A stretch of 64,000 nt of DNA. Source: Yuukianura sp. NJ FZ-2021. Its lineage: Eukaryota. The notes below the pieces were generated by a model. That model had not been told where the DNA came from. It did not search any database and worked only from the letters and a program-made list of their open reading frames with translations. A program made the position numbers and the translations under genes. Positions 1,249 to 51,015 of this stretch are shown in pieces. Numbering within the stretch: the first letter of the stretch is position 1; each line of letters opens with the position of its first letter. The DNA lies in assembly GCA_046563655.1 (NCBI GenBank), contig CM102283.1:1922001-1986000 (forward strand). The letters run 5' to 3'.

Positions 1249-1853
1249 AACTTTCGTTTAGGTCAAAGGTCAAATTGAGATTTTTGGCAACAAATATTTG
1301 ATTTTGATACATAGTAGTAGTGATGTAAGAAACGAAAGTTTTGAAACTTTCAAAATTGTGGTAGAGTTTTTTTTTTAGAACAAATGTCGCGTTTAGAATT
1401 CACTAATTTTTGTTACTTTTTTTTAAACATTTGTTGTCCATTTCTAATTAGTGAGAGGTTTATATCTTGATTTTCATTGGTCAAAGTCAGAGTTACGAAA
1501 TTAAATGTTTCATTTCCACAACGAATCATCTAGGAATTTGGTCCAAGAATTTTCTTGGACCAACTTCCATACGAAGTTTGAAGAGCAAGGAAAATATTGT
1601 TGATTTGATAATTTTTCTAGGGATGTTAATTGGTTGAACCAAAGTTTCCTCACCACCTCACCTCTTTATTAATGAGTTAACTAATAATTAATCATTAATT
1701 AGGAATAAATGTATTAAAAAATCTGAGTCGACCACATTGAAACTCTTAATTTTCCTTGTGATCTGTTTCCTGTAGCTTTCGACTTGTAATGATTTTAGTT
1801 GATCTTTGAAAGTTATTAAGAAAGCGTTGATCTCCCTTTGAATTTTGGACAAG

Positions 1854-2643: not shown

Positions 2644-2800
2644 TCTCATTCTCAATCCTGTACAATTTTTTTAAAAACTTCTTTAGAATTCTTATTATCG
2701 TTTTCAAGTAATTCCACTGTGTTAAACCTTTAATTCACGAATATATTAACCTGCTCTAATAACCCACATTGTTTAACATTTAAAACATATTGTTAAACAG

Positions 2801-4600: not shown

Positions 4601-5268
4601 TTTGAACAGTGCTAGGCTAGTAAAATTCAACTTTTCAACATTCAGCTAGGTTCCTCTTCAACTGAAAACTAATTCATTTGAGTGGGTGAATTTATAACCT
4701 TAACTTTGTTTTTTCAAGGTCTTTAAATTAGTACGAATCAAGGACTTTTCTAAAGAGCAAAACAGTTTGAAGTGGCAAAAAAAATCTGACGAGCAAAAAC
4801 ATATTTGCGTTTCAAAAAAGTTCTTTATCTTGCTAGAGTTTTTTTTTTGACAAAAGACAAATTTGTATAAATGACAGCCTAAAAACTTTTATTAACGCGT
4901 CTTGACGTTATTGCCAGTGACAGTTTGACCTTGTATATCAATGACTTGCACCTTACATCATTGACTTACATCTTACATCCTACATCATTGGTTACATCTT
5001 ACATCAATGACTCTTATATGAATCCTTTACTTGCAATGAAACATACATGACAATATAGAATACGCAGTTATAATTGTTGGAAATTGAAAAAAGTAAACCA
5101 GTAAAAAATAAAATGAAAATGAAAATAATAAATGAATATAATATAACAAAATATGAATGAAAATATAATATGTGTTTTCCGTTGTACTTGTACTGCTACA
5201 TTTTTTATTGTTACTCACTAGTTCAACAAGTAGACGGATCAACACCGTTTAAAATGTCTGTTAAACAG

Positions 5269-11200: not shown

Positions 11201-11522
11201 CGGGCGTCTTCCATCGTAAACCTACAAACAACAAATTGCAAAAAAAAAGAATCAAAAAATGTGTTTTTTAAAAATTTGTGTGAAATTTTGAAATTCTTAC
11301 ACCGTAGATGGTACCGTATTTTTCTCGCCGTTTGATATCCAATTCCTTGATGTTTACCCAGGGTTCAAAGTAGTTACTTCCAAGAAACAAAAATGGCTTC
11401 ACAACAGGAATTCCAAGCTGCTCTAAATATCCGTAATTCCATCGAGCATAAACTATGGCAATTATTAAAATTCCGACAACTATAGCCACAATTAAACTAA
11501 TTAAGGTCCAAATTAAGTCCAT
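5269..11522 (-). CDS. Cytochrome P450 copy B; intron 2 contains a LINE
   Basis: Exons 1-2 at ~11522-11071 and exons 3-5 at ~6558-5269, same exon layout as the paralogs; FGHGPRSCIG. Confidence 0.9.
6954..7898 (+). CDS. LINE ORF1 (coiled-coil plus RRM-like RNA-binding protein)
   Basis: 314-aa intact ORF; heptad region followed by NLVILGLNE...RFGK...PRKVKVKF...YVNEDL, typical of LINE ORF1. Confidence 0.8.
   Translation: MAPARKVGKGKRTREAGGNDDEEQGSSPKRSHTSDTSPKVFRPAENLTLANIAQIVQDGVQQITGQVSSLVKTVENLATEVKETKQRVTKLEELSYGADVKWKELQRCVETVDLQSRKLNLVILGLNESVAETEIELKLAVSKFIKDVLEVQNRIEIDTCFRFGKRFGDKPRKVKVKFTKQHDRNVVFGAREILFQKKISIYVNEDLPQVTMDRRRMLRDEANKARILGKRSKVVGDRLIVNGVAFKIGSNGNLETDETSPPQLERHSMIGTGLQGSMPTNSGYRNAVLRRSNENQVQGQTQQTGETMEEEGGN
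7899..10741 (+). CDS. LINE ORF2 (AP endonuclease plus reverse transcriptase), four 1-nt frameshifts as given
   Basis: GHLNVRS, LSETW, GGGV, LGDFN, LDL, SDH (APE); FRPI, NQFG, SIDLKNAF, QGSVLGP, YINDL, FVDD, LG (RT). Confidence 0.88.
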
Positions 11523-12486
11523 TTTAACAATGTTAGGTTAGCAGCCTAACTAAATTGGGTTCGTCAGAAGAGATTTGTGTGCGCTATAATGTTATTTAGC
11601 TGCGCTTCTCTTCAACTGCCTCCATACACGGTGTGTGTGGGCAATTTTATAATGGTGAGAGGTTTTTTTACAGACTGCTTTCAGTTAATAATCAAGGACT
11701 TTTTTTTTCAGAAGAGTGAAAACAGTTTCAAGCTGTGTTACCAAAAATGAAAAAAGAAAAAAAACAGCGCTTTAAGTTCTTGAAGTGTTTTTGGCACATG
11801 CAAATGACAGATTAGGAACTACATTAAAATTGTCAAAGGAAGGCGCGCGTAGTTAAATTCTGTTACAGGCAGTTGTTGTGCATCAATGTCGTTATTTACA
11901 CCATTCACTTACATCTTGTTGGTAATTATTAACTTACTTCAGTGAAAGTTTAATCCCCAGACTTATATCTATAGATGTACGTGGTTCGTATTTTACTGAA
12001 TTTCAAAAATAATCTTTTTTGGAAACAATTTTTGCAGTGGAGTTTACTTTTTAGTTGGAATTTTTTTTTAAAGTTGAGTTATGTGCTTCAACCGTCAAGT
12101 TTTGTCTAAAATTACGTTCAAGTTTGACAACAAAATTAATTGCTTGCTAATGAAAGAAAAATCTAATTTGAAAAAAAAAAAACACAAACACTTTATTATA
12201 CTTACGCGTTTTATTACACAACTAATATAATTTTTACAAAGCGAAAAAAAGGAAGAGAGTGAAATTCATCAAAACTGCAATTTTTTTCTATTTTTGATGA
12301 AGTTGCAACAGAAGAATGAAGATGTTTTAAATGTCTTGCTGTTTTGGTAGTGACGTAGTACTAACATACATGTATGTATATAGCATGTACATAAATGTAT
12401 GTATATGTGTACTGCATAAAGATTTTACTTGTTGTAAACAATAGCTAAACACATGAGTTAAACAGTTTAAGACGTCTGTTAAGCAG

Positions 12487-14665
12487 TCAGCGTTTCCATA
12501 CATCAACAACACGTTTGTGAAGCACAACCGGATCCCCGCTAGGTTTCAACTTACGCGACGTATCTAAACGTTCTACTATTTTGAATTTTTTCAAAAAAGT
12601 TGCAACTAGAATCTTGAGTGTTTCCGTTGCAAAACGTTGACCAATGCAATTTCTTGGTCCATGTCCAAATGTCAAGTTAGTGTAGGGGTCACGTGACCGT
12701 TTTTCGTCACCCAAAAACCGCCAAGGATCAAATTTGTAAGGATCTGGGTAGTAGTCAGGGTTGAAATGCAAGGCAGCCACGGGGAATACGACCTGAATGC
12801 CTTTTGGAATCCGAATACCCTCGTACTCCAAATCTTCATTGCATTGCCGATCGGGCCGAAAGACAAGCGGATGCATGCGCAAAGTTTCCGTAATGGCTGC
12901 AGTCATAAGTGGCAAGTTGTTGCTGATGGCGTCCAAAGTCAAGTGTGGCAAAGCGTCAATTTCAGCGAAAACGGATTCTTGAATTTCTGGATTCTTGGCC
13001 ATTTCATGTATGCAAGATTTAAAAGTGTGACCTATTCCGACATATCCCGATGAAAAAAAAATCCTAGCCTGTGCCAGGACCGTATTTTTGGTGATTCCTA
13101 GTCGGTTGTACTCTGCGTCGGTGCGAACTTTGTTCATCATGTCAACGAATGCTGCAGTTGCGTCAATTGACTCTTGACCGGATTCTTCCCGCGTTGCCAA
13201 AATATTTTCTAAAGCGCTGACCAAGTAGTCCACCCTGGTTTTATGCGATTCAAAGGTTTCAAAAGTTTCATGGATGTCCAATTCTTGCATAAGCATTTCC
13301 AATTTTTGAATAAGCATCTCCAGTTTTTGAATAAGCATGTCCAAGGGTTTGATCGCAACCCTTAGAATGATTGGAAATATTTCTGTTGAATAAAGAGTCG
13401 AAAAATAAAACATAATTTCAAGTCAAGGTAAAACAGAATACTAATAGGTAAGGTAATATAAAATTTTTTTTTTAAAGTAGCTGCTATGGGTAAGTATTTG
13501 CCTTTTTCCTATTTTTTCACACGCAGTGACGTCATTTACAGTGCTGTTAAACATTTGTATCATTTTAGCTACAAAAATTGCTGCGTTTAAACTGGAAAAA
13601 AAGCTAGAACTTAGATAAACTTGAAATGCACTCGCAGTGACGTCACTGTGTGTTTACTGTTCAAAAATCCGTTTTGCCCGCACAAGCTTTTCAGCCACCA
13701 CCTGATTAGAAGTTAGTTTTTTAAACTTTTAAAATTTTGAAAAACTTACTCACAAACAGTACTCCCCAGTCATGATTGTCATGCAAAATTGCCGCTTTCA
13801 TATTTTCGATGAACTCATTATTGGGATCCTTTGCATTCGGGATTTCAACCCCGCAGAAACATTTGCACAAGATTTCAAGTATCATTGGACCAATGAATCT
13901 GTCTCAAAATGGGTATTTGTAAAATTTCTAAAAGTTTCAAAAAATTGAATGTGTCTTAAATTTACTGTTCGAAATCCATTTTCTCATAAAGGCCGTTCGA
14001 CGCTTCACATTTAGCCATCAGCGTCTGCGCATACTCTTCTGCAATGCTCTGCGAAATCGTGTTGAGCTGCTTGATTTTTCCAGTGGTAAAAATTGGAGTC
14101 AAGGCATTCCGGACAGTCTTCCACTTTTCATCTAGTACAAAATTATATATTTTATATCAAAATTATTAATAATTTATTATATTATGGTTCTTATGATTAT
14201 CATATTACCCTCGAGCATATTCAGAAGTTGGCCCCAAACGCTACTACTTTGGCCAAAATCCCACCCATGGTTTCGAAAATGATCGAAATCTACTGTTGTA
14301 ATTAAACGAATCAATTTTGGATCCGAAATGCAAATTTGCGGGCATCTTCCATCATACACCTGGAAGCAACACGTCAAAATTTCCAAAACCCAGAAGAAAA
14401 AAGTTATATTTAAAAAAAAATTCAACAATTTTCAAGTTCTTACACCGTAAATGGACCCATATTTCTCTCGTCGTTGGATATCCAGTTCCAAAATGTTTGC
14501 CCGCGATTCAGCATAGTTACTTCCAAAAAATAAAAATGGTTTCACAACAGGAATTCCAAGCTGCTCCAAATACCCATAGTTCCAACGAGCATACACAATT
14601 GCAATTATTAAAATTCCAACAACTGCAGCCAAAAATAAACCAAACTGTGTCCAAAGTACGTCCAT
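12487..14665 (-). CDS. Cytochrome P450 copy C (divergent, with heptad-repeat insertion)
   Basis: Same 5-exon layout; ETLR, DPWRF, FGHGPRNCIG. Confidence 0.88.
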
Positions 14666-14991
14666 TTTTAACAATATTAGTTCAGCAACGTAACTACTTG
14701 CTTGTGTTAGGTAGGTGAATAGCCCAGACGTGCGTTTGCAGTGCGTTAAAAGCTTGCGTTTACTGTTTACATGAAGTGATTTGAAGCGACTGAAGAGAAA
14801 CACTAGATTTCACAATGCAGAATACTTCCTTGTAAGGCTATTGCAGAAGATCAGAAAGGAAAGAAGTGTAAAATTAGACTCATTTTTGGATGAAATGAAC
14901 GCACTAATATTTATTTTTAGAACATAGACGTTAATAGAAACGGTCGTTCACGTTTCCCGGATTTGTAGAATTCGGTTTGGTTTGCTCAATA

Positions 14992-15212
14992 CAGTAAAAC
15001 TCCAAATTTGGAAACTTTTTTTTCCTCTCATTCATGTGACAGTGGGGTACCGTAAAGACTAACTTTTGAAGACGGAGAAGAGTTCGTGGCCTTTTGACTG
15101 GTCTAATTTCTCCAATGCACTGTGCATAGAAAGTTTACGGTAGGCGCGAAAATCCTTTAGACCAACCAACGAATCAGAATCAGAGTGAGTTTCCTAATTT
15201 GGAGTTTTACTG
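14992..15212. mobile_element. MITE, Tc1/mariner/pogo-like
   Basis: ~25-bp TIRs cagtaaaactccaaatt(t/a)ggaaact, flanked by TA on both sides. Confidence 0.8.
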
Positions 15213-15269
15213 TAAAACGATTCTTGAGAAATGTGTATCCATAGTTGCCAACAGTTGGTCAAAAACCGA

Positions 15270-17080
15270 TTATCGTTTCAACACATCAACAAAAATTGGT
15301 TTGTGAATCAAAATAATACTCCCGCCAATTTCCTGTTCACAAATCGTGTCCGGGCGTTTAGCAATTTTAAACTTTTTCAAAAAAGTTGCCAGTAGAATTT
15401 TGAGTGTTTCCGTTGCAAATCTTTGACCAATGCACCCCCTTGGGCCCTGTCCAAATGTCAAGTTAGTGTAGGCGTCACGTGACTTTTTTTCGTCACCCAT
15501 GTACCGCCAAGGATCAAATTTTTCAGGATCAGGGTAAAAGTCAGGGTTATAATGTAAAGCAGCGAGAGGAAATACTAGTTGAGTGTCTTTTGGAATCCGA
15601 ATTCCCTCAAACTGCCAGTCCTTGTTGCACTTCCGCTCGAGCCGAATGAAATTGGCATGTTTCCGACCAGTCTCCGTAATCGCAGCTTGAAGTAATGGAA
15701 GATTGTTGCTAATCGCTTCCAGCGTCAAGTGTGGCAAAGCGTCAATTTCAGCCAAAATTGATTCTTGAACGTCCGAATTTACAGCCATTTCATACATGAG
15801 GAATTCAAAAGTGTCACGAGTTCCAGCGTATCCAGCTAGAAAAAATTCCCACGCCTGTGCAATGACCGTGTTTTCGTTGATTCCTAGCCGTTTGTAGTCT
15901 GCGTCGTTCCGAACTTTTTTCATCATTTCAACCAGTGTTGAAGTGGCATCAATTGACTCTTGACCTGATTTTTCCCGCGTTTCCAAAATATTTTTCAAGG
16001 CGCCAACGAAAAAGTTCATTCCACTTTCGTCCATTTCGAACGTCTGGTATTTTTCAATAATTGGAAACATTTCTGTTTAAAAATAAAAATAAAATTAAAC
16101 TTAAAAGTTGGATTTTTTTTTCAAAAAACTTGAAATTTCAAAAAACTGACTGTAAATGAGTGTTTTCCAGTCTTCTTTGGGTTGGTCGTGCCACAATGCC
16201 AATTTCATGTTTTTAATAAATTCGTTGTTTGGATCCGTCGCATTTGGAATTTCAATTCCACAAAAAGATTTGGCCAAAACTTCAAGTATCAATGGAGCAA
16301 GAAATCTGTTTCACCAAAAAATTCACAAAAAAACGTGTTTCCAGTAAAATAAAAATTGAAATGTGCCGTAAATTTACTCTTTGAATTGCATTTTTTCGTA
16401 ACGGCCATTGGACTTTTCACATTGAACCATAAGTTTCTGTGCATACTCTTCTGCGACACTTTGAGTGATTGTATTCAGTTGTTTGATTTTCCCGGTGGTA
16501 AAAATCGGTGTTATGGCGTTCCGGACAGTTTTCCATTTTTCATCTAGTACAAAATGACAAATTTATATTATATGAATATATATTATATTTATTATATTAC
16601 ATTTTATAATAATATAATTTTTCTTACCATGAAGTACGTCCAAGATTTGAGTCATAACGCCATTACTATCGCCAATATACCATCCATGGTTTCGAAAATG
16701 ATCGAAATCTACTGTTGTAATCAAACGAATCAATTTTGGATCAGAAACGTAAATTTGGGGGCGTCTTCCATCGTAAACCTGCAAAAAACGGAATATCAAA
16801 ATTTCAAAAAAAAAATGATCGTTTTTTGAAAGTTTGTCCAAAATTTTGAAATCCTTACGCCATAAATGGTACCATATTTTTCCCGACGTTGGATATCCAA
16901 CTCCTTGATGTTCACCCAATGTTCAGTGTAGTTACTTCCAAAAAATAAAAATGGTTTCACAACTGGAATTCCAAGAGATTCCAAATATCCGTAGTTCCAA
17001 CGAGCGTAAACAATTGCAATTATCAAAATTCCAACAACTGCAGCCACAATTAAACTAACTATGGTCCAAATTAAGTCCAT
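15270..17080 (-). CDS. Cytochrome P450 copy D
   Basis: Close paralog of copy A; FGQGPRGCIG. Confidence 0.93.
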
Positions 17081-17586
17081 TTTTGACAATGTTAGGTTCG
17101 TTGTGGTTAGATTCTTCTTCAACTGCAACTAAACTCATCAGTTTATGTGGGTGAACTTATAACTCTTAGCTTTTTCGTTTCGTGGTGTTCTAAATTAGGA
17201 ATCAAGGACTTATTAGCAAAAACACTTTGAACTTGCAAAAAAAGTTCCATAAGTGTTTTTGACGCATGATAGATTAGGAACCTCAAATCGAAATGACCTT
17301 GGATTTGAATAATGTTATTGCCGGTGACAGTTTAACCAATGTTAGGTTGTACATCAATGACTATAACATCTTACATTATTGCTCTACAGCTTACATCAAT
17401 AATTTTATTACGTAAACTGTAATCTCTATGTACGTGAAAGTTTATCGTAAAGCTTGACGCAAATTTATGAAATCACAAAAAAACATAAACTTTATTTTTA
17501 ACCCGCAACTTCATTAAAGATTGAGATGTTTGCAAAAAGAAATGTTTTTTTTTATTGTAATTTAAGTGCGATTTTATTGACGAGAA

Positions 17587-21197: not shown

Positions 21198-21688
21198 CAA
21201 GGCAACTAAACAAAAAGACACACGCGCTTTCTAAGGTAGTCTCACGAGCGGTTTTTTAATATTTTTTTGCGATATTTTTTGGTGGGGCGGATTGTGCGGT
21301 TTCCAAGGAAATAAAACGGTATAGAATTCGTGCAAAGGTTGGTTGAGGTAACAATGATGTGTTAGTTGTACCCAGCGTTCAGTATTTTACGCAAATCAAC
21401 TATTTGTCATTGAGTTGTATTGAATTCGTAGTAATTATAAGCGTAAAATTTGTCTACTCCATTTTCCAATCCCAAAATCAATGTAAACCACTAGCCCGAT
21501 GATTGGGTACACTGAATGGTCACAATGGAGGAATTTGATTTTGTACTCCGACCGAAGGAAAACGTTGTCAGAGGAATGTTTAAAAAACAAACAATCCGCC
21601 CCACCAAAAAATATCGCAAAAATAGCTGAAAAAACCGCTCGTGAGACTACCTTAGAAAGCGCGTGTGTATTTATGTTTAGTTACCTTG
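21198..21688. mobile_element. MITE with CAAGG termini and 8-bp TSD (P- or hAT-like)
   Basis: ~100-bp imperfect TIRs; exact TSD atacaaac at 21190-21197 and 21689-21696. Confidence 0.88.
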
Positions 21689-33141: not shown

Positions 33142-36078
33142 TTACAAAAGATAAGCAAATACAATGAGTAGGACAACAGTGAAATCTATTGAATGTGTGG
33201 TTGAGGTCAATGACCTTTCGCTACTCTCACTCCTGCAATCCGACTCACGGATTTGGCGGTACGGTTCGAATTTGGGGTAGTGTAGAGTGTTTTCCTAGGA
33301 GAAACAGTAAGTTTAAGAAATTTTCCTGCGTCATAAAAAAGTTATCAAAATTTCGAAACTGAATTTTGAGAAGCTAACTTACGTCAATTGGAATACGTCT
33401 GAGACCAGAAGCGGAGCAGAACATATAATGTAATCCATTTCTCCATCCATTTTCAATGCCTTTAACGGTTTCCGCGTGATTCCAATTGATATGTCGCAAA
33501 AAGGCGCCAACGGATGAGGAATTTGACGACATTGTACCTCTCGCCATTTCAAATGGAGTTTGCAAACTGCTCTCCATTGTTCCCATCAATTGCAGTGCAT
33601 TGTCAACTTGAGTTAGTTGTACAGAACCACTAAAACGAAAAAAATATACATCCAAATTTTATGAAAATTTGGTTGTTTTAATGAAATTTTTAAATTTCTG
33701 TTTTACGATTGAACTTACCGCGTAAAGTAAGGTTGGTACTTTGTAAATGGGAGACGCATTTTGTCAAAAACGGCGCCAGTAACATTTGAAATGCCGAGAG
33801 TCTGAAAAAACGAATGAAATTCGGGCTGACTTCGGCAGTCCGTCAAGTCTGTTTTCGGATAGTAGAGAACAACGGCTTCACACATTTCGTTGCTAGTAGA
33901 CATTCCACCCTAAGAAAAAATTTTGTGTCAAAAATTTTGCTTTCGAAATTTTGAAAATTTGGAGAATCAAATTGTTACAAATGTCAGTTTCTCCTTCCGT
34001 TCCGTGTCGTAAGTACACTCGACCATCAGTTCATCTCCGGGTAAAACTGTAACTTCTTTCTTCACTCTTCTGAATTGTTGAAAAGTAAAATCGTAATTTT
34101 TGTCCTAAAATTTGGAAATTCAAAAAGAGGCTTGAATTTTTTTTCAAAATTTCACTACTTTTTGAATTTACTTGCAAAATGGGCTCAAGTTCTTGACCCT
34201 TGCGAACATGCCGTAACACAATTTTCCGTCCCATCATTTGTGCATGTAGAAGTCCGCTGGTGATTTTGATCCCATCTGATGCCGAAATTCCCTGATATTT
34301 ATAATATTATTATTATACAATATTATTATTATTATGTTAATTCAATTATAGTATTTCTATTCATTTGATTACGTTTTGTGTGCATTCGCTAGAACAGAAG
34401 CTGTGTGTGGTAAAAGCATTTTGGAATTGTGGGATCATTTGAAACGGCGTAATTCGGTGTCCCAAAACCAGCGTTCCAGCATCGTTATTCCGCAGATTTT
34501 CGGTGTAAAATATTCGAAATCCAGAGTTATCCATGACTGTGATAAAAAAAAGTCGAAATCTTTTTTTTTGTATTTCACAAAAAAATTTCTTTTTCGGAAA
34601 GTAATTTTTTTCTCAAAAAGAACGTACATGTCTTGCGCATGGGATTATTGTAGTGAATCTCCAATTTGAAGTAAGTGTCGCCTTCTCCATCTTCCCCAAC
34701 TGGAACTCCAATGTGACTTGGAAACATTTCACCTGTCAACAGAATGAGATTTTAAAATATTTAAATATTATATAAATTATTATATTTTATATAAATTCGC
34801 AAGTGAAAACAAGTTACCCTCTGAACCAATTGCCCAAGTGAACAGGAAAGTCGAACAGTAGGTGGCCCACTCTGGTGGATTTCGTGGGTCATAGCATTCA
34901 GCGGCCTCCGTTCCCACGTATTTTTCAAAAACGTTTCGCGTTCCGCCAAAATGGTCCGGTACATGACATGTGTATAGGGTAATGTGATGCACAAATTCAA
35001 TGTTTTCAGCTTTCAGAATCAGCGGTCGAAACTAAAAAATGACAATTTGGTCAGTAGAAAATAAATTTTGGTCATTGGAAAATAAAGGTCATTGACCTTT
35101 GTCTAGTAGGTCATGAAGCATTGAACTTCAATTGGAAGGTCATTGACCTTACAAAAATGACCTTACAGTTTAATGTCTAAATTAAACCTTGGCATTGTTT
35201 CAACTTACCCCAATCAAGTGAAATTTCTTATCAGCCCGCGGGAATTTGAAAATTCTGCACATGTAAGTCGTTTCTATCGGTTCAATATGCACTCTGCTCA
35301 TGGCGACGTCCCAATGCCGTATCGATTCCGAATCTTGTTCGGCTTTGTTCGGAAACCGTACCGTGTTGACCGGAGATCGCAGCAGAACCGTTCTTGTTCC
35401 GCGGGTTTTAGCACCATGCCAGTGAAAAGTCAAAGTCGGAAGGGTGAGTGGATCACTGAGATGCCACGCCCAGATGAGACGCACAGTATCGTCCTTCAAA
35501 TTTTGAAACACCAATTTCAAAATTTCAATTTTCAAAAACAAATTCAATGCAAATCATCATTTTCAAAATTTTGAATTTTACGTCAATTCTCAAATCATGT
35601 CGGTCGTCACACGTATCCCACCGTCTTCGGAATCGTACCGTCGTTCTGCCATCTCTTTCTGACGCCGCAACCAAATCGTAGTCCTGCTGATCATCTTGAA
35701 TCGGCTGCTCTCTTTCTGGAGCATGAAAGTCCTGGCAGGAAAATGTTGAAAATTCAAAATTCAAGAATCAAAATTTCAAAATTTTGAATTTACCGCCAAG
35801 TGTGGGAGTCCGTCACGGTCAACCCACCCTACGACAATGTCGCTGCCCTTCATGCCTCCACTAGGGCTGAACCCTACGGCGACATAGCCTAACGTAGGTG
35901 CACTCATTTCCATTGTTAAGTAATACGGGTCTTCTGCGTTCCACTTAATCTCCATGCCAGTTTCCAGTGATAGCTCCTGTGTCCAGCGCTGGAAAGAGTC
36001 TGGCAACACTTGACCTTGACCTTGACCCTTAACCGAGGTCAACAGACACAATAGCACTGCCAATATTTCCAAATCCAT
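33142..36078 (-). CDS. DBH-like monooxygenase (MOXD1-like: DOMON plus Cu type II monooxygenase N/C), copy 1
   Basis: GYVAVGFSPSGGMKGSDIVVGW, FRRRWDTCD, VHH, EIHYNNP, DNSG, EMC; hydrophobic C-terminus. Confidence 0.9.
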
Positions 36079-37339
36079 TTTTTTGAAATTCCAACTTTTA
36101 AGAATTTTTCGAACAAATTTCACTTTTCGAAGAACTTTTTACAATAAATGTTCAGTTTAATGGTTTCAGAGCAGGAAGCAAGCAGTGAATGTTTAGAAAA
36201 CGCCTGTTGTACACCATGTGTCTCTTGCTGGTTCCAGAACAAGGTTAGCTTAGGTTAGGTTTGGTACCCTTCAAGGGCCCTCCGCGCAGGGTCCCTTCAT
36301 GGGCTCAAGTGTCTCTACCGGGGTCATGTTACTGAAACTGGATCCGAAGAGGAAGTGGTTCTGAATGAAACAAAAAAATTCAAAACTCTTTCTAAAACAC
36401 ACTGAAAACGTTTCTAAAATTAAAACGTTTGTTAGCCGTTGTTTTTTCAAAAATATCAGAAGTGTTGAAAATTGAAAATTCGAAAGCGTCGAAAATTTTT
36501 GAAATCAAAAGACAAAAATGTTGAAAGTCAACGTTCAAGAAGGATAAAGAGAAATGACTAGAGGAAGAATTTGCAAGAAAACACTGTGAGGTCAATGCCC
36601 CATCGTGTTCAAACAGCACTTTTTTTTTGTTCGTAAAATATAAATACAAAATGTTTCGTGACGATGATAAAAATTGTGTGGCTTCTTTTTCAAACAAAGT
36701 CCAATCACTTTCTAAGCCTTAACCCTCCACTTTCACTTTAATTTCTAAGGAAGTGTTTGGAAAAAAATTGAAAAGTAGGCATGCAATGTCTCTGTGCTGT
36801 GCATAGCACTTTCACCTACGCCACACCATGTGGGGTGCGCAGCTTTTACTTTAGGGTGCGACCATGTTTTACTTGAATAAAAAGAACACTAGGATATTGT
36901 TCTTCCGAGGCCGGTTGGTTAACAAGCTTTACGATTCGATACCGTAAAAGTTCTCGTTTGGCCCACTGTCCGGGCTTAAAATTTGTGGAACGTGAAAATG
37001 ATACACGTTTGTTCAATTTCTTTGGTAAAAGCATTTTTTTTGACAACGTACGGTACTTTGAAGGGAAACGACGAAACGAGCAAGGTGACATGGAGTGAAG
37101 GCCAAAGTGAAAGTGGAAGTTAATTGGAATCAAGAATCAATCACCTTGTTCTTTCTAGCAAATTGGATACAAATTGGTTTTCTAATTTTGGTGAAAACGG
37201 AACAGGGGTCACCAAGGTCAAAATTGTTATTTTCTCGTCATTTTTGAAAAACTGGACCTAATAAGGTGAATTAAAATTCAAAGGAAATAAGATTTTAGTC
37301 AAATTGACTTTAAAAATTTATATACAGTTTGTATTGTCA

Positions 37340-40273
37340 TTATGTATTTTTATATAACAATATTTCTAGACAAGCTATTGTGAAAACTATGAATGCGAAT
37401 GACCTCAAGGTCATGTGTGAGCCTGTCGAAACTACCGAGGGTGAACAGACGCTGGATGGAGGAAGTCGTTCCTTGTAGCCTCCAATTTTCAAAACGCGAT
37501 TCTAAAATTTAGAAAAGTTTGTGACCTTTTAACGTTTTTTTTTATTTAAAAACTTTTACTTACTGGAATATCAATTCGAATTCCATGTTCTCCGCTGCAG
37601 TACATGTAGCGTGGGGCTATGCGTAATTCTTCTTGCACAAGTTTGGAAAAACTTTGATTCCGCCAATCCAGATTAGTCATGTAGCTAAGCAATGATTGGT
37701 CACGCAAATTTGGTGGATCACGGATTGTTAACTTTGAAAAAAAGTTGGATTCTGACACAAATTGAAGAACGTAAGCGTCATCTGGTGGTGCAATGGTTTC
37801 GTTTTCTCTAAAAAAAATATCAAAATTTTGAAATCGATACTTGCGTTTGAAAAAAAAATTTCATCCAAGTTTTGATTTTGAACGTACGGTGGGAGGAGTC
37901 TGCGCAGAATGGATCCACTGGCGTTTTTAACTCTGCCCATTGCTTTTAAGTATGCATAGAATTCCGGTTGACTACGACAGTCCGTCAAACTGGTTTTGGG
38001 GTAATACGAGATAAAAGCTTCGCACGTTTCTTCTTTAGGTGAAATGCCACCCTAAGGTCAATTTCAAATTTTAATCCTAAGTTTTCAAAAAAAAATTTTT
38101 TTTTAAACTTACGAAAATAAAATTTGTGTTTCGTGTTGTGTCGTATTCACATTCCATGATGAGTTCGTCTCCAGGAAGAACTGTTACTTCCTTAGCTAAT
38201 CTTCGGTATTGTCGGTATTTGAAATCGTAGTAATTGTCGTACGCCAAAGGTTCGAGTTCTGCGCCATTTCGAATATGACGCAAAGAAAGTTTCACGGCGT
38301 TCCGATTTGCTTGAAGCAAAATACTAATTACTTTGATTCCAGACAGAGAAAATCCCTGAATTTAAAAATTAATTTTTCATAAATTCTCAATATAAATTTT
38401 TGAATTTTGAACTTTTCATGTTCCAGTTTCACCGCGCTTGTGCAATCGCTGGAACAGTGCCCGTAGAGTCGGAAGTTTTCTGGAGTGGCGGTATTGTTAA
38501 GAATGGCGTTCGACGGTAACCGACAGACAGAACAGCGGTGTCAAAATTTCGCAACTTATCGGTGTAGTAGATTCGAAGACCAGAATTATCCATTACTAAA
38601 AAAAAGTATACCGGTAACCCCGTAACCTTAAAAATTTGCGACCATTTTAAAATCCACATTTTTGAAGTTCGTGCTTGCCTGAATGCCCGTAGGGATTCTG
38701 ATACTGAACTTCTAGTTTGAGATACACTTTATCCGTTCCCATCGGATCTCCAATATTTTCTGAATACATTTCACCTAAATCAAGTAAATATGATATTAAT
38801 ATATTAAAATGTATTAATATTTTTATATGAGTGATAATAAATATATGTGTAAAACTACCTTCAGCACCAACCGACAAGGTAAATCGAATTACGTAACAGT
38901 AGTTGGTCCATTCCAATGGAGAGTTGGCGCCAAAACAATTAGTATCTTCGTGGTTTAAATACTTTGCTAAAATATCGTCAGTTCTCCCGATGGCTTCAGG
39001 TACATGACAAGTATAAACTTTAATGTTGTGGACGTACGGTTCACTTTCTTCAGAAATCAGTGGACGATACTGTTTAAAGCAAAAGAATTTGTTTAAAATT
39101 TGGAACAAGGATACAAAAAAAAAGTTTTACTCCAATGATTTGATGCTTTCTGGAAAGTTTCGGAAACTGGAAAATTTGACACAAAGAACTCGAGTTTGTT
39201 TTTGGAATGTCGACCTATAAAAAGGACAAGAATCGACCAATCAGGAAACTTTTGAGTTTTGCGCATGCTCAATGCCTGCAAAAGCTCTTGGTTCGTTTAA
39301 AATTGAAGTTCGAATGCAAATTTTAAGTAAGGAATTAGATTACAGTGGCAAATTAGTAAATATATTTTTACATTGTACATGGCAATGTCCCAGTGCTGAA
39401 TTGTGGAATCGTCTGGAAATATGATTGGTTTGGGATTTGTTTTGAAGTAGACACGGCGCACACCTCGCCGATTCCCAACTCCATGATGGTGAAGAGGTTG
39501 ACCTTCCACGGGGTCACGCGGATGCCATGCCCAGATCAGTCGTATTGCATCGTCCTAAAATGACCTCTGACCTTTAGTTGCATTAAACCTAAGTACTATT
39601 TGACCTCAAGGTCACACAGTTCGTACCCCGATGATCATGTCGTCCTCGTCACAACTGTCCCACTTTCGCTTGAAAACAAAACTGGATTCTCCCTCAACTT
39701 CACTTCCGTAGAGGAGAACGTAGTTCTGATTCTCATCTTCTACTGGAACTCCATTCGTCATGCCATGATAATCCTGCCAAACATTGCAAACAGCCACAAA
39801 ATTCAAATTTTGAAAAAAAAATTGCGAAATGAAAAGTAGTTTGCTCAGAATTTGGAATTTCTTGTTTCACAAATTTTGAAGCTAGATTATAGAAAACCTT
39901 TAAGTGGGCAACACCAGCGTCATCTACCCAACCAATTACGATGTCAGCACCTATAAAATAACGAATTGTAAGTAAAAAAAATTTTCAAACAACTAAAAAA
40001 ATTTTTTTTCTCTTCAAAATTTGGTAGTTTTTTTAAAATCTAACCTGGCATTCCACCAGTAGGTGAAAACCCAAGGCCAACGTATCCCCTTGTCCTGGCC
40101 TTCATTTCGATTGAGATCCACTCTGGATGTCGATTGTCCCACTTGACCTCAAAGCCACCCTCTCCTGCAAAGGTCATGTGATTTGTCCACACAATAGACG
40201 AGTTTGAAGCGCCACTTTCAAAAAGCGCCAAATTCAAATTCAAAACTAGAGCAACTATTGTGTACTTCATCAT
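37340..40273 (-). CDS. DBH-like (MOXD1-like) copy 2, copper ligands lost, one apparent frameshift
   Basis: Paralogous exon structure; GYVGLGFSPTGGM, RKWDSCD, DNSG; 1-nt deletion near 38478. Confidence 0.8.
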
Positions 40274-40761
40274 GGTGATGAACTAGGGTAAAGTCTAAAG
40301 TAAAACTGGATCACGACTAACGGTTTTGTTTAGCACTTTTTTTTAGCAAATACGTGCGGTGGAGTGGAACCTAATGCGGAAGGACTTTAGAGGCATGGCC
40401 TTACATAATTACAAATTAACAAAACACTTTTTTGCAATTTGAATTTTTGTTTTGAATGTGAAAGTAGAACCATAACTTGCACTGTCATAAGCTATGTGTT
40501 TGTAAAAATATTATGTCAGAGAGTTTTTGGAGACAAAAAAAAATTCTGTTGAACTGTTGCTGAATTTCTCATAAAATAAAAAATTTCGACTTTTTTTGAA
40601 AAACGAGAAAAAGTAAAGCAGTTTTTAGATTTAATTTGAAACATGCTTGTATTCACACCTATTATGTACAAATTGGTACTGAACCTAGTATATTTTTTTT
40701 TCGTCATTGTTTAAATATCTTTTTAGATTAAAATTACGTAGTGCGTTAGTTACGTTTCGCT

Positions 40762-43665
40762 TTATACAAGAGTGGAAGGTGAATTTTCCTGCTTCTGTAA
40801 ACTACTTTTCCTTTGTTTCAGAATTTTCTGAATATCTTTTGGGTTGACGTCTGACTTCCTTCGTTTGGGTTTGAGACTCCAGAACTTATGTTCCTTCCCG
40901 AACGCGTCTGCGTCCTCAATTGTCTCCGGAAGATGCTGATGAAGTGTCTCCGGAAGAAAAGCTGTCACGATCATTCCCGTTAGTGACATCAAAGCCATGG
41001 CTAAATATGGAGCTCCAGCATAAAAACGACCCTGGAAAAAGGTCATAGGTTACGTAGGCTAAGCGAAAGGTCAAAGGTCATTGACCTTTTATGTAATCCT
41101 ACCAAATAGACAATTGATGGTCCAAAAATCCCCATGATGGAGCCGACTGTTCCGCAGAAAGAATTTCCGGAAGATCTGAGTGATGTTGGGAAAAGTTCGT
41201 TTGCTTGGAGGTAGAGAATTAAAAACGTGATGGTGATGGAAAACCTACACAAAAATATACACAATTAATAAAAAAAATATCTTATATAAAAATTAATTAA
41301 TTTATCATGTTTTGACATGTTTTGATGTTACTTGGCAGCTACTGCAGAGATGATTACTAGCATAGATGAGTCGGGGAGAGTGGCAGCTACTGTGGCAACT
41401 CCAAACGTAATGACTGATATGATGAAGAAGACGACCTGTGTCCAGCGTCTCCCAAGGGCCCCCAGTAAGTACCCTCCAAGGACACTAGATGGTACTTCGA
41501 TTATTGACAAAATAAAGAAGTTGAAGAATTGGTCACCAGACATGTTCGGAGTGTTGAGTGTAATCGAGTCGTAAATCATGTTGTTCACGGTCCTGAAACA
41601 TAAAATATGCATGTTTACTCTGTATGCTGCAAAAATGTAAGTTAATGTTACTGTGCCACTCTACATGAAATTTCACAGTGCAACCCGCTATACTATATGC
41701 ATAAGTTTACATAATATGTAAGGGAACATTACCATGATATGCAGAGAAGGATAGTATTTTTGGCTAAATTCCGTTTGCTAAAAAGCGTCCAGACTCCAAT
41801 AGTTTTGTGTTCCTTTTGCTGTTGAATGACCCAGACACGGTCCAGCGCAGCTTCCAGTTCCTCTGGTGACATTTTATCTTGAGTGCCATTGACCTTAGCT
41901 ACTCTATGCAAAATCACTGCAGCTTCCTTCACTCTTCCAGCAGAGGTTAACCATCTCGGACTTTCTGGAAGGAACGGCCAGTACAGGAAAGTCACGAACA
42001 TGGGGATGTACGTCACAAGGCCAATGAGGAACCATGTTCCTGCGTAGTAGGCTACGTAAGGCAACGCAGCCATACCGAATACCCAAACAGCCCAGGCAAA
42101 AGATGCTGTGAAACTACGGTATTCGTCGTCTGTGAATTCAGCAATGATCATGCCTGGAATCAAGGTTGTTTAAATCAAAATTTAGTTTTTTTAACAGGTT
42201 ATACCATAACTCCTTTTTTCAAACGTTCAAAGTTTTCGAACCGCACATCTAATAACGCGGCTATGTTGCGTCAGCAATTCGAAATAAAAGCTATGAGGTA
42301 TGACTCAGCAACGTGATAATTAAAAAATTATTGTGAAAATCAAAATTTTTACAAAAGCTTTTTTTTTTCGTGTTTAAAAAAAATCGGAGTTATGGCATAA
42401 CCTGTTAGTGCATTTGTATAAATTGACGCTATAGCAACCTTGCCTGGAATCAAGTATGAGAAGGGGTAACCAGCAGAACTGAAGAACATGGCAACATTGT
42501 ACAAAACGAAGTTGTGAGGCAGGAAGAGCGACAACATGCGAAACACCAGGTAGACGAGGGCTGACAGGAAGAAAATCGGTTTGCGCCCAACTCTAAACAC
42601 ACCAAAATTTATAACAACAAAAAAGGAGTTGGAATTTTAAACATTCTATAAAATTTTGGAATCTGGAAACATTTCCAAAATTTGAAACGTTGTCTTACTT
42701 GTCCGCGAGGAGACCAAAAATGATAGTTCCCGCCACCGAGCCGACGCTGCCTATCGTGAATACATTGGTAGGATAGTGATCAAAGTGACACACCCAGTTG
42801 AATTCACTGGGTATAGTTGACACAAAGTCTGAAGTGTCGTACTGCCACCCATTGGGACAGTCAACTACTGTCCCATTCTGGTCATACATTTGACATTGAC
42901 TAAACCTAGTTTGACCTTCGGCTCCTACAATTCTGAAAACAAAAATTGACATGTCACATTTCTATATGCAGTTGACCTTTGACGTTTGGACTTAGCAAGG
43001 TTTGTCAACAAGAAAATAGTTTTTTCTTAAACAGGTTAACCAATAATTCGAGGTTTTTAGTTTTAAAAATTAGCAAAACTTGGTTCACCGTGCCTTCCTA
43101 ATGATTTATATGTAACCAAATGGATTGGAGGATAAAATTGTTTGGGCGAGATTTTTCGAAAACAGGACTTATTGCTTAACCTGTTAAAGGAAAACTATTT
43201 CGTTGCTAAAGGAACCTTGGAACTTACAAAGGAAGGTGTTTCTGTTTCCATAGCTGCAGTTGTGATTCATTTAAAAACTGGTTGCCCTCCTGGAAGCACC
43301 AGTGATCTGGAATAAACTGGAGGTAGATTGTGCTAAGGCAGGTCAAAGGTGAGATTCCGATGATTGGACACACGAAGGCATAAAACAGGAGTTGCTGAAA
43401 CCGACCTTTTGACCCTAGGCGCTCCAAAATGTCATCGAATTCAGTTATGTCTTCAATTCCACTTCCAGGTTTCCCTCCGTCATCTTCCTGTGGCTGCTGG
43501 ATATTTTATATAAATATATTATAGTGTTACATATATTTTATATAAACGTATTATATATCTATATTTAAAATCCGCCTTATTGATAGCAACTAATACCTGC
43601 TCTGTGTTTTCGATCACGTCCAACTCCGTTGATTGGTCCAAATGATTAGTAGGCAGATGCCGCAT
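40762..43665 (-). CDS. SLC22/organic cation (carcinine-transporter-like) MFS transporter 1
   Basis: STIPSEFNWVC, LADKVGRKP, PESPRWL, GRRW, ELFPTSLR, LPET. Confidence 0.9.
42161..42442. mobile_element. CAAGG-ended MITE inserted in an SLC22 coding exon
   Basis: TIR caaggttg / caaccttg, inverted subterminal taacaggttat(a/g)ccataactcc, exact 8-bp TSD cctggaat at 42153-42160 and 42443-42450. Confidence 0.88.
42996..43219. mobile_element. CAAGG-ended MITE in an SLC22 intron
   Basis: caaggtt..aaccttg ends, ~55-bp imperfect TIRs containing aacaggttaa; degenerate TSD ggacttag / gaacttac. Confidence 0.7.
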
Positions 43666-48247: not shown

Positions 48248-51015
48248 TCAAGTAATTTTGTTAGATTTAGTTTCTTTTTCGGTTTTCTTTTTGTAGGGCA
48301 AGTAGCTCCAGAAAGCAGCGTCTTTCCCAATGTCATTGGCGTCGTCCATGGATTCCGGAAGACTCCTATCTAACGTTTCAGGCAGAAACAGGGACGCCAG
48401 AATTCCAAGGAGAGAAAGCAGGGCCATTGCGACGTAAGGCAACATAGGATCTAACTTGCCCTGAAACCAAAAATTAACATCTCAATTTACACTTATTGTT
48501 AATTGTTAAAAAAGCAGTTAAAGTTAAACTAGGTTAATTAATTGAGATTAACTTCTCTAAGCATTACCAAGAAAACCAAGTATGGCCCTGTGATGCCCAC
48601 GGCTGAGGCCGTGGTAGAAGCAAAGCCGGAGCCAGTTGACCTCAATTTCGTAGGAAAAATTTCTGTTCCCTGCAGATATACTACGAGGAAGGTCAGGGTG
48701 ATGCAGAACCTAAAATAAAACAAAAGGTCATTGACCTCAAATTTTAAAACTCAGATCATTGACCTCAAAAAACTAAAATTGATGCCAGCGCGGAATTATA
48801 ATAAAAAACTAGGCTCATTGACCTCTGAAATCATTGACGTCTAAGATATGTGACCTCTAAGGTCATTGCCCTCTAAGGTCATTGGCTTATAAGGTCGTTG
48901 ACCTCTAAGGTAATTGATCTTTAAGGTCATTGACCTCTAAGGTAATTGACCTTTGGGGTCATTGAGCCGCGACTAGAGGCCATTGTACTCTTACTTGGCA
49001 CAAACAATGGACACGATAACGAGAAACTGGAGGTTGTTGTGGACGCCAACCGCGGCTCCAATGAAGGCCACAATGCAGAGCGCGAAAAATACGACTTGTG
49101 TCCAGCGTCGCCCCGTCCGATCCACCAAGTAGCCACCAAGCCACCCCGACGGAACTTCAATTACCGCCAAAATGAAGAAATTCAAAAACTGGTTTCCAGA
49201 CATGTTACTTGCGTTGAGTGTAATTCCATAATACACAAGAGCGTTCATTGACCTTGAAAATTCAAAGAAAGATTACATCTTTGTCTCAACGCGCCCAAAA
49301 AATTCGATCTTTTCAAAATCCTCTGAAAATTCCAAATTCCCGGATTCAAAATTTACAGTTGAGTTGATTTCTCCTTTTTTTACCATGAAATTGTAAGCAT
49401 GATGGTATTTTTAGCTAGTCCAGATTTGCTAAACAATGTCCAAATTCCAAAGTGTTTTTCTTCTTGAACTTGTTTGTCTGCAATTGATTTTAGCATGGCT
49501 TCCAGTTTTTCCCGCGGAACTTTGTCTGAGCGTCCATTGGTTGCTGCCACGTTTTGAATTATGGCGGCTGCACGTTCTGTTTGTCCAACAGAAACCAGCC
49601 ATCTAGGGGATTCTGGAAGGTAGTTCCAGAGTCCAAAAACTAAAATTCCAGGAACCGATGTGACCAGACCAATGATAAACCAATGTCTTGTAGCCCATGC
49701 CAGAAGTGGAAGTAGTGCCATTCCAACAACCTTTTCAAAATTTCAAAAAAAAAATCTAAATTACAAAACCTATTCAAAAATTTCAGTTTAAGTTCTAGAA
49801 TTCTTGAATAGAAGTTTTAGTTCCGCATACCCAAATGACCCACGTAAAGGCGTAGATGAATCCACGATATTCTGAAAAAAGAAAGCCAGAATTTCGTGTG
49901 TTTCGAAAATTTCGAATGAGAAATTTTCAGAAATGGCATTTTGAAAATCCCCGTTACCTTTGTCAGACAGTTCCGCAGCGATCATGCTTGGCGTAATGTA
50001 CATGACCGGAAATGCCGTACCGACGATGAATTGTACAACAAGGAACAGGAGAAAACAGTGCGGAACGAAAAGACTCACGACGCGGAAAAACGTATTGATG
50101 AAAACCGTCAGAAAAAATATCGGTCTGCGTCCGAATCTGAAAGTTCAAAAAATGTTTTCTAAAATTTTTTTCATAAGAAAATAGCACAGAAGGAATAACT
50201 CTGGAGGCGCCTTATAGTATATCAGCAGTGGTTCCTTACTTGTCTGCACTCCATCCAAAGATGAGTGCGCCGACGCAGTTTCCAACGGCCTGAAAAGTGA
50301 TACATAAAATTCAAATAATTTTTAACTACTAGATGCCATAATGCATAAATTTAATTATAATTATTATAATATCATAAATTAATTTACGTAGAGTGTTAAG
50401 GCATCGGTTGCATAATGTTCTCTTTCGCAAACCCAGTCGTAGTTAGACGGAATGGTCAAATCGTAGTCAGTTTTGTCATAGTCCCACCCGTGGGCACAGT
50501 CCGTAATTTCCCCATCGCTCCCAAACATTTTACATTGGTTGAACTTTTCTTCTTCGCCTATTCCAACCTCCCTACAAAAAGTTATTTTTTCAAATTTTTG
50601 CATTTTTTTTTTTTGATTTTTTGAAATGAATTTGAAATATTTTCGTACTTAGGAATAGTCAGGTTCTTCCAAGCGTCCATTTCCGTCCCGTTCCCACGTC
50701 CCGGCACGTGACACCAGTGATCAGGCTGGAATCAAGTAAAATGTAAGAAATTAAAAATCAATATTAGTAAAATTCCATTTTTAGAAAACTTGTGTTTTTC
50801 AAAATTTTGAGGTTTTTAGTTACTTCATATAGCATAAAGAGGGCGTTGAGAGTGAAGATGGGTTGGACCATGATGATTGGACCAAGAATGGCAAAAACCA
50901 AAATTTTTTGGTACTTCCCTTGAGATCCTGCCAGTTCCAGAACCTGGTCAAATTCGTCCGTTTCCACGGCAGTTCCAAGGTCATTCTCAGGCAGTTCGTC
51001 ACGGTCATCTTTGTC
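48248..51015 (-). CDS. SLC22/organic cation MFS transporter 2 (first exon not resolved)
   Basis: TIPSNYDWVC, ADKFGRRP, PESPRWL, DRTGRRW, EIFPTKLR, LPET. Confidence 0.88.
48725..48965. repeat. Intronic 16-bp tandem array of AGGTCAnTGACCT palindromes
   Basis: Units like aaggtcattgacctct repeated about ten times with variation. Confidence 0.8.

Follow-up and report, generated by a model that had tools for sequence, protein, structure and literature searches.

The window, the whole 64-kb stretch of DNA analysed here, carries an SLC22/Orct-like MFS transporter gene (gene 1) and its tandem paralog (gene 2), and exon 3 of gene 1 is split by a 282-bp MITE (Table 1). With the 290 nt from 42443 to 42154 taken out, the coding sequence of gene 1 comprises 1815 nt and encodes 604 aa with no internal stop, while the remaining six introns are GT-AG throughout, all with intact splice-site pairs. 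Exon 3b matches the Pfam family Sugar_tr (PF00083; E 4e-10, 39.6 bits against a curated cut-off of 22.3), the atlas neighbours of the protein belong to Sugar_tr/SLC22 clusters, mostly arthropod, and those relatives that bear a name are carcinine transporter-like and SLC22 member 16-like. The best named protein matches, from Leptidea and Musca, reach just 32–35% identity, and the host is taken to be an animal, probably an arthropod. Searches of the protein collection gave nothing above 82% identity, either among longer relatives (9 matches from 343 candidates) or among near ones (6 matches from 15 candidates).

Table 1. Features of the split transporter gene and its surroundings (positions in the window)
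Feature	Position	Strand	Remarks
Gene 1, SLC22/Orct-like MFS transporter	40762..43665	-	7 coding exons
Gene 1 coding exons before exon 3	43665-43597, 43496-43228, 42932-42699	-	exon ends read from sequence
Gene 1 exon 3, split by the MITE	42592-42444 + 42153-41733	-	149 + 421 nt
Gene 1 coding exons after exon 3	41592-41332, 41244-41103, 41031-40762	-	last one includes the stop; ends read from sequence
MITE, hAT-like, non-coding	42161..42442	-	282 bp; TIRs CAAGGTTG / CAACCTTG; from sequence, depth and contig ends
Target-site duplication, copy 1	42443..42450	-	ATTCCAGG, 8/8 match; codes ..I P G(1-2); the putative intron begins with its last G
Target-site duplication, copy 2	42153..42160	-	ATTCCAGG, 8/8 match; ATTCCAG is the putative intron 3' end, last G the first exon base
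MITE subterminal inverted repeat	42192-42219 + 42380-42407	-	28-nt arms, 89%; by repeat detection
Putative GC-AG intron	42154..42443	-	290 nt; phase 2 in a Gly codon (GG|C); removal restores the 570-nt exon 3
Putative 5' splice site CAG|GCAAGG	42438..42446	-	exon part and +1 from the duplication, +2 to +6 from the element terminus
Putative 3' splice region	42154..42185	-	..ctaaattttgatttaaacaaccttgattccag|G; read from sequence
Alternative canonical donor CAG|GTTATG within the MITE	42400..42404	-	intron start 42401; paired with acceptor 42154 it keeps 42 nt in frame (14 aa, no stop)
Related MITE in intron 1	42996..43219	-	224 bp, CAAGGTT...AACCTTG; depth peak, loose ends at 42996 and 43219/43220
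Homologous site in gene 2	49958..50010	-	..YITPSMIAAELSDK; no intron at the homologous codon

The MITE and its target site

The element is a true high-copy MITE with an 8-bp target-site duplication. On the minus strand the order is ..TACTTG ATTCCAGG | CAAGGTTGCT ... AAACAACCTTG | ATTCCAGG CATGATC.., and the exact direct repeat around the MITE is 14 nt long (42151-42164 = 42441-42454, 100%) rather than 8, because CTTG 5' of copy 1 and CA 3' of copy 2 happen to match the element ends. Word depth in run X1 amounts to 32–50 in the flanks and to 353–4351 in the four bins covering 42145-42512, so that the MITE stands 10 to 100 times above its surroundings. Contigs from other copies stop precisely at the two element ends: X1 has 20 at 42161, and at 42442 there are 43 in X1, 54 in X2 and 74 in X3, with unlike flanks; the flank consensus of these copies is approximately GTCTAAAC on both sides, with a low agreement of 0.37–0.41. 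Within the window there is no second full copy, just a 43-nt, 81% match to the MITE of intron 1. Sequence, depth and contig ends thus agree with the first-pass annotation of this DNA, which had described a 282-bp element with inverted ends and an exact 8-bp duplication inside an SLC22 exon.

Terminal inverted repeats of hAT transposons begin with YARNG. Both ends of our MITE fit such a start, and the 8-bp duplication, short TIRs, small size, lack of coding capacity and many copies are all traits of the hAT superfamily, so that by its sequence the element may be called hAT-like. One might suspect a repeat misplaced in the exon during assembly, given that the element is present in high copy number and short contigs break at its ends. 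We find such an artefact hardly credible, since the junctions are crossed by independent contigs of three runs (X1 records 5 and 7, X3 records 19 and 21, X5 record 27) and a perfect 8-bp duplication flanks the element.

Ancestral state and persistence of the insertion

The MITE interrupts the part of the protein that is conserved best. In a distant relative represented by a 3019-nt genomic contig (L001), exon 3 is uninterrupted and 570 nt long, precisely the length of the rejoined exon 3 of gene 1, and the neighbouring intron positions are kept. A second relative from another assembly (P0016) reads through ..SYLIPGMIIAEF.. unbroken, and both are continuous across ..YLIPGM(I/L)IAEF... Such a distribution indicates that the insertion is derived, the MITE having entered an exon that was ancestrally uninterrupted; orthologs of this kind, free of the insertion, had been named in the first-pass annotation as a check on its reading. 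The comparison with L001 (81% amino acid identity, pN 0.118) yields no dN/dS ratio because synonymous sites are saturated (pS 0.91). In gene 2 the nearest intron (86 nt, 49957-49872) lies 29 nt downstream of the homologous site, in agreement with the earlier claim that the paralog lacks an intron at this codon, and another one is found at 49830-49731. Near the site, gene 2 has ordinary short GT-AG introns that show no MITE features.

Of the five sequencing runs listed for the locus, none is from RNA, which has no bearing on expression. The MITE–exon junction also occurs in DNA contigs from the sample's second haplotype and from X5, which bears another organism label and comes from another study. 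X3 record 21, which has the alternative allele at 42547, spans 42442/42443 with 71 nt of MITE and 166 nt of exon sequence, and X3 record 19 extends from exon 3b into the element for 8 nt. X5 record 27 (42142-43002) crosses the element completely, showing 38 differences and 9 gaps, its flank at the lower junction being 19 nt, which is under the 31-nt bridging rule; X5 also shows eight differences in exon 3b, none of them among the listed variants. Overall, all three haplotype sources sampled (X1, X2/X3, X5), about 1–5% divergent, contain the MITE, and no empty-site joint skipping it was found among the best 15 of 82 joints. The insertion had been called recent in the first-pass annotation; this is doubtful, as the insertion is older than the separation of haplotypes roughly 1–5% apart.

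Coding variants number 24 among the best 33 of 154, and 21 of these are synonymous and three non-synonymous, against a neutral expectation of 73–78% non-synonymous (binomial P about 1e-9 for 21:3 among the listed coding variants); this bias is partly uninformative, since it concerns the best-supported variants only and, with recombination, some of them may predate the insertion. The listed coding variants nearest to the MITE, at 42547, 42104 and 42065, are all synonymous.

Such evidence bears on the possibility that the insertion is plainly disruptive, that is, that the MITE is retained or spliced out of frame, producing a young null or strongly hypomorphic allele, still undecayed and tolerated thanks to the paralog. 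In-frame read-through does end in a stop within the element (ORF 42636-42352), 36 codons past the junction (..YLIPGKVAIAS...KKKLL*), yet the 1815-nt reading frame is intact, as are the remaining six splice-site pairs, and the listed coding variants are overwhelmingly synonymous. The still perfect duplication fits a young event, whereas the presence of the MITE in all three haplotype sources and the lack of empty-site joints among the best-supported ones argue against a disruptive allele. A tandem paralog lies only 5 kb away; however, the two proteins are roughly half identical by eye in the aligned stretch, and with such a divergence gene 2 is not a redundant copy. Finally, the flanks of other copies suggest that the family is not aimed at AGG targets, which again would suit a simple disruption. 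Weighing these points, we regard a disruptive insertion as unlikely.

Putative splice sites and the fate of the element

We propose the following scenario. A non-autonomous hAT-like MITE inserted at the target ATTCCAGG in the conserved exon 3 of an SLC22-type gene, and the 8-bp duplication placed one CAG|G on either side of it. Upstream, the G that ends the duplication and the first bases of the element, CAAGG, would together make a near-consensus GC 5' splice site, while in the downstream copy ..ttccag|G would serve as the 3' splice site at the same offset. With CAG|G on both sides, the U2-type spliceosome could remove the element along with one copy of the duplication, restoring ..YLIPG MIIAEF..; the gene would then stay functional, and the insertion would persist as a new phase-2 GC-AG intron. 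We consider it fairly probable that the MITE is indeed spliced out precisely in this manner, and we infer the use of the GC donor and the duplicated acceptor from their sequences. Both sites, as well as the exact restoration of codons upon excision of the 290 nt, had been put forward in the first-pass annotation and can be read in the sequence. Of its broader claim of transposon-driven intron gain, a MITE in an ancestrally intact exon with an exactly removable GC-AG pair stands, and the adjective "recent" is doubtful.

The consensus of 5' splice sites is MAG|GTRAGT, and GC donors make up a small minority among animal introns. Compared with this consensus, CAG|GCAAGG agrees at 7 of 9 positions, equalling or beating each of the six GT donors of gene 1. 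TTGAT (A at -21) and CTAAA (about -28) are candidates for the branch point, and the pyrimidine tract of the putative acceptor is moderate (about 11 pyrimidines in 18 positions).

Among the splice pairs around the element, only 42443/42154 leaves a length change of zero. The GT donor AAG|GTTGCT, located 5 nt inside the GC donor, would add 5 nt with the same acceptor and shift the frame, a shift already noted in the first-pass annotation. Donor/acceptor pairs around the element that are stop-free and in frame number 25, among them 42401/42154 (+42 nt) and 42470/42154 (-27 nt). The in-frame donor CAG|GTTATG at 42401 had been overlooked in the first-pass annotation.

A rival reading, in whose favour these pairs count, is removal of the MITE mainly through other sites, which would give an altered or leaky product instead of a clean intron: either 14 extra aa (KVAIASIYTNALTG) within a transmembrane region (donor 42401 with the same acceptor), or a mix of precise, +5-nt and -27-nt products. 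GT donors are generally favoured over GC donors; however, neither alternative GT site (GTTATG, GTTACC) has a purine at +3 or a G at +5, and both have fewer consensus matches than the GC site. Moreover, the most conserved segment of the protein would gain 14 aa or lose 9 aa, which is difficult to reconcile with the synonymous bias. Such an outcome therefore seems quite unlikely to us.

Returning to precise splicing, the inverted repeats of the element probably fold the intron and bring the splice sites near each other. The predicted fold of the intron RNA has an MFE of -85.6 kcal/mol (z -6.98), with none of 100 shuffled sequences equally stable, and according to this model the subterminal repeat probably forms a long hairpin holding both splice sites close together. 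On the other hand, the predicted hairpin pairs the donor region and could just as well impede U1 binding as promote it, and the tandem paralog could make gene 1 dispensable; both points speak against precise splicing, as do the minority status of GC donors in animals, the nearby GT donors and the only moderate pyrimidine tract.

Relation to known introners

Intron gain is rare in animals. In maize, Dissociation (Ds), a member of the hAT superfamily, reportedly made an intron de novo, as Giroux et al. are said to have described in 1994. The likeness to our locus consists in a hAT-type element, an 8-bp duplication, a position within an exon and spliceosomal removal, which we infer in the case of the SLC22 gene. 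Still, the plant allele with Ds is a laboratory mutant, whereas the SLC22 MITE is a natural insertion common to all sampled haplotypes.

The original paper on the introner elements of Micromonas and Aureococcus is said to be that of Huff et al. from 2016. In a later review, these introners are short non-autonomous DNA transposons with inverted ends that carry one splice site and obtain the other from the target duplication (PMC11282704). The SLC22 MITE resembles them in being a short inverted-end DNA transposon with putative splice sites derived from element and target duplication. However, the same review gives Micromonas a 3-nt duplication and thousands of near-identical intron copies, and at the SLC22 locus the duplication would provide most of both sites, the element contributing only donor positions +2 to +6. 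Closer in this respect are the class 12 introner-like elements of Polarella glacialis, for which a preprint describes a 3' site from an NNAGG duplication and a GC 5' site made of the terminal G of the duplication and the initial C of the element (Roy et al., bioRxiv 10.1101/2020.10.14.339549). The putative SLC22 donor would arise likewise, from the last G of the duplication and the first C of the element. Polarella is a protist whose splice-site usage is unusual, with a 5-nt duplication and classes that each comprise hundreds of introns, whereas here we deal with an 8-bp duplication, a hAT-like MITE, an animal host and a single case.

In the AGGT-target model, a proto-splice site duplicated on both sides of an element permits precise removal (PMC3443670). 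The SLC22 locus shares the proto-splice site duplicated on both sides of the MITE. Unlike in that model, the target contains AGG without GT, and the second base of the donor is the C of the element, so the putative intron is GC-AG. Among animals, the tunicate Fritillaria borealis is described as having MITE-derived non-canonical introns that need an altered spliceosome (PMC11282704). Animal host, MITE origin and duplication remnants at intron borders are common to both cases; the Fritillaria borealis introns have non-canonical ends, whereas those of the putative SLC22 intron are standard GC-AG. A survey covering 3,325 genomes detected introners in just two animal groups (PMC9860276). The words hAT, MITE and GC-AG do not occur in PMC12130899, and a literature search judged by titles and abstract openings returned no animal case like the SLC22 MITE.

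The SLC22 locus offers a dated, fully traceable case, in which relatives have the empty site, the duplication is intact, the element family is known and the splice solution is exact. If the splicing is real, an ordinary hAT-type MITE can become a clean animal intron in one step, by the same route via the terminal G of the duplication and the first C of the element as in dinoflagellates. If it is not, the locus is simply a shared insertional knockout within a duplicated family of transporters.

It is tempting to suppose that the CAAGG-ended hAT-like MITEs of the host animal form a working introner family, although we hold this decidedly improbable. Both termini bear the same inverted repeat and would supply +2 to +6 of a consensus GC donor in either orientation; any insertion at a target ending in AGG would then be born as a precise GC-AG intron, with the hairpin juxtaposing its sites. 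In such a case the genome should hold many young GC-AG introns and would reveal ongoing transposon-driven intron gain in a studiable animal. As read from the sequence, the supply of splice sites by element and target duplication, an introner trait, is found for the 42161..42442 copy only. In the 64-kb window, CAAGG...CCTTG pairs 80–1500 bp apart with a flanking 8-bp repeat matching at at least 7 of 8 positions occur just twice, one of them being this MITE. Neither of the two other CAAGG-ended MITEs in the window makes up a whole intron: the element at 21198-21688, with an 8/8 match of its 8-bp duplication, lies where no gene is assigned, and the 224-bp one sits inside intron 1, where its target duplication, GTAAGTTC / CTAAGTCC (6/8), coincides with the first 8 nt of the intron.

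An element within a coding exon of gene 1

The model of gene 1, a transporter gene of the SLC22/Sugar_tr type, was assembled by script from exon coordinates, the exon ends having been read from the sequence. Exon 3b has a Pfam Sugar_tr match of 39.6 bits (cut-off 22.3), carcinine transporter-like and SLC22-like proteins are the closest among those with a name (32-38% identity), and the atlas neighbours fall into Sugar_tr/SLC22 clusters, largely from arthropods. Apart from the putative one, gene 1 has six introns (100, 295, 106, 140, 87 and 71 nt), each of them GT-AG.

Features of the window discussed in the text
Feature	Position	Strand	Remarks
Gene 1	43665-40762	minus	7 coding exons
Exon MITE	42442..42161	minus	282 bp; separates exons 3a and 3b
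Target duplication ATTCCAGG	42450-42443 and 42160-42153	minus	two exact copies flanking the exon MITE
Putative intron	42443..42154	minus	phase 2, within a GGC codon
Intron-1 MITE, CAAGG-ended	42996-43219 (region 42988-43227)	minus	224 bp; in intron 1 of gene 1
Third element	21198-21688		CAAGG/CCTTG ends, ~60-nt terminal inverted repeats, perfect 8-bp duplication ATACAAAC
Extra introns of the paralog	49957-49872 and 49830-49731	minus	short, GT-AG, flanking a 41-nt exon
Cytochrome P450 tandem array	2800-17200	minus	exon ORFs
Non-LTR retrotransposon	6951-10741	plus	between P450 copies
Two tandem multi-exon genes	34000-40300	minus	directly downstream of gene 1

On the minus strand, 42153-42450 reads ..TCATACTTG ATTCCAGG CAAGGTTGCTATAGC ... 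TTTAAACAACCTTG ATTCCAGG CATGATCATT.., with the element starting in CAAGGTTG and ending in CAACCTTG. A repeat finder returned an exact direct repeat of 14 nt rather than 8 (42151-42164 = 42441-42454), because the four bases preceding the first duplication copy and the two following the second resemble the ends of the element by chance; it also returned a subterminal inverted repeat of 28 nt (89%). Contigs from four public DNA runs (X1, X2, X3 and X5) were aligned to 40765-43505. Contigs carrying other copies diverge exactly at 42161 (20 in X1) and exactly at 42442 (43 in X1, 54 in X2, 74 in X3), their flanks being unlike, and word depth in X1, 32-50 along gene 1, rises to 353-4351 over the four bins of 42145-42512. 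The exon MITE is a real high-copy transposon, its ends confirmed by these break points; the size and exact 8-bp duplication described in the first-pass annotation also hold.

The 8-bp duplication and CAAGG termini are consistent with the hAT superfamily, whose termini follow the rule YARNG. The flanks of other copies (consensus ~GTCTAAAC on both sides, with low agreement) do not suggest that the family prefers AGG targets. Only two CAAGG...CCTTG pairs in the whole window, 80-1500 bp apart and flanked by an 8-bp repeat matching at least 7/8, passed our scan: the exon MITE and the 491-bp third element, between which no similarity beyond the termini was found.

Uninterrupted relatives and sampled haplotypes

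Relatives were sought by protein search with exon 3b as the query. The protein P0001 (82% identity to exon 3b) is predicted from a 3019-nt metagenome contig, L001, which is genomic DNA of a relative; its introns on either side of exon 3, as well as the one separating exons 1 and 2, are placed as in gene 1. Exon 3 of L001 is one uninterrupted stretch of 570 nt, corresponding to 149 + 421 nt in the window, with TTAATCCCTGGGATG at the insertion site. A second relative's protein from a separate assembly (P0016, 81% identity) is also unbroken there (..SSAGYPFSYLIPGMIIAEFTDDEY..). Aligned to these proteins, the two pieces from the window meet with a two-residue overlap (IP) due to the target duplication, and nowhere is the alignment better conserved than around the site. 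Orthologs without the element, which the first-pass annotation had proposed to look for, were found, and the insertion is the derived state. Over 349 aligned codons, gene 1 and L001 share 81% protein and 71% DNA identity; synonymous sites are saturated (pS 0.91) while pN is 0.118, indicating a distant relative and long-term constraint on the gene.

X1 agrees with the window haplotype; X2 and X3, from the same sample, show a second haplotype differing from it at ~0.6-3.7% of positions per contig in 40765-43505. Many of its alleles also occur in X5, a run from another study with another organism code; apparently the species is highly polymorphic, unless the run labels take in close relatives. 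X3 record 21, with an alternative base at 42547, bridges the upper junction, 71 nt of it lying within the element and 166 nt beyond. At the lower junction, X3 record 19, which has the alternative bases at both 42065 and 42104, continues for 8 nt of the element and shows no additional mismatch; an empty site would produce mismatches in those 8 nt. X5 record 27 (42142 to 43002; 38 differences, 9 gaps) spans the whole element; with a lower flank of 19 nt, short of the tool's 31-nt rule, it is credited with bridging the upper junction alone. No empty-site joint appeared among the 15 joints listed of 82 in contigs of the four runs. That the insertion is an artefact is highly improbable. The exon MITE is shared among haplotypes differing by ~1-5%.

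Putative splice sites and the fate of the gene

If the element is retained, the reading frame enters it and stops after 36 codons (ORF 42636-42352), as would befit a tolerated null allele. Removing 42443..42154 restores exactly the pre-insertion codons, as the first-pass annotation had claimed, and yields a CDS of 1815 nt (604 aa) without internal stop. Both putative cuts lie at the same offset in the duplication copies, so the product equals the sequence before insertion. The candidate donor, CAG/GCAAGG, joins the last G of the first copy to the first bases of the element, and the candidate acceptor, ..ccttgattccag/G, comes from the second copy. Compared with the 5' splice-site consensus, MAG/GTRAGT, this donor agrees at 7/9 positions, with mismatches only at +2 and +6; the six GT donors of gene 1 agree at 5 to 7.

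In and near the element, GT or GC donors combine with AG acceptors into 25 pairs that keep the frame open, of which only 42443/42154 leaves the length unchanged. Two canonical alternatives, CAG/GTTATG at 42401 (+42 nt, 14 aa) and CTG/GTTACC at 42470 (-27 nt), both fit the consensus less well; we regard removal mainly via other sites as quite unlikely. The GT donor AAG/GTTGCT, 5 bases further in, would cause a frameshift, as previously noted, by adding 5 nt. As RNA, the putative intron is predicted to form a long hairpin (-85.6 kcal/mol, z -6.98) that would bring its ends together, but the donor region is also paired.

Among the best-supported 33 of 154 variants, 9 are non-coding and 24 coding. 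The latter comprise 21 synonymous and 3 non-synonymous changes, against 73-78% non-synonymous expected from random change in this CDS (binomial P ~1e-9), and those seen in X5 15 and 2; the count leaves out eight exon 3b differences of X5 and, given recombination, may include variants older than the insertion. The sharing of the element, intact frame, intact splice sites and synonymous bias together make it likely, on balance, that gene 1 still functions, which would require the element to be removed precisely, or at any rate in frame. A tolerated null allele is unlikely, and we consider precise GC-AG splicing of 42443..42154 fairly probable. From the original proposal of a recent, transposon-driven intron gain, the anatomy, the derived exon insertion and the exact restoration stand; "recent" must be softened, as the event predates the divergence (~1-5%) of the sampled haplotypes.

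Known systems and neighbouring features

Judged by its sequence, the locus is a strong candidate for one-step conversion of a MITE into an intron in an animal gene, and one that can be traced in full. The proposed mechanism has already been described in other systems. Maize Ds, attributed to Giroux et al. 1994, is reportedly a case of transposon-based intron gain. The review PMC3443670 cites that case and presents the classical model, transposon insertion with duplicated proto-splice sites; introner elements make introns by such insertion at genomic scale, according to the review PMC11282704. The closest match is class 12 of Polarella glacialis: an NNAGG duplication supplies its 3' site and, by the same device as here, the last G of the duplication followed by the first C of the element makes a GC 5' site (bioRxiv 10.1101/2020.10.14.339549). 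Unlike that class, the exon MITE resides in an animal, is hAT-like with an 8-bp duplication, and represents one putative intron rather than a documented intron-making family. Animal introners, in a survey of 835 animal and land-plant genomes, are reported in only two groups (PMC9860276).

The 8-bp target of the intron-1 MITE, GTAAGTTC, is the first 8 nt of intron 1, so the 5' splice site was doubled when the element inserted; today the downstream copy has the sequence CTAAGTCC. Intron 1 would measure 63 nt without this MITE and one duplication copy (105 nt in L001). X5 record 31 extends 7 nt into the MITE, which may also be common to that run. In the paralog, the tandem SLC22-type gene 2, the stretch with two extra introns matches one continuous exon in gene 1 and its orthologs, reflecting either intron gain in gene 2 or intron loss in gene 1.

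Judged by eye from their exon ORFs, the genes downstream of gene 1 look like DBH/MOXD1-type copper monooxygenases. The retrotransposon, also by eye, has endonuclease- and reverse-transcriptase-like ORFs, its frame lying in several pieces. The P450 array contains four large exon ORFs (2801-3607, 5269-6075, 12487-13422 and 15270-16076), each 268-311 aa long, and its best named relative is only 35% identical.
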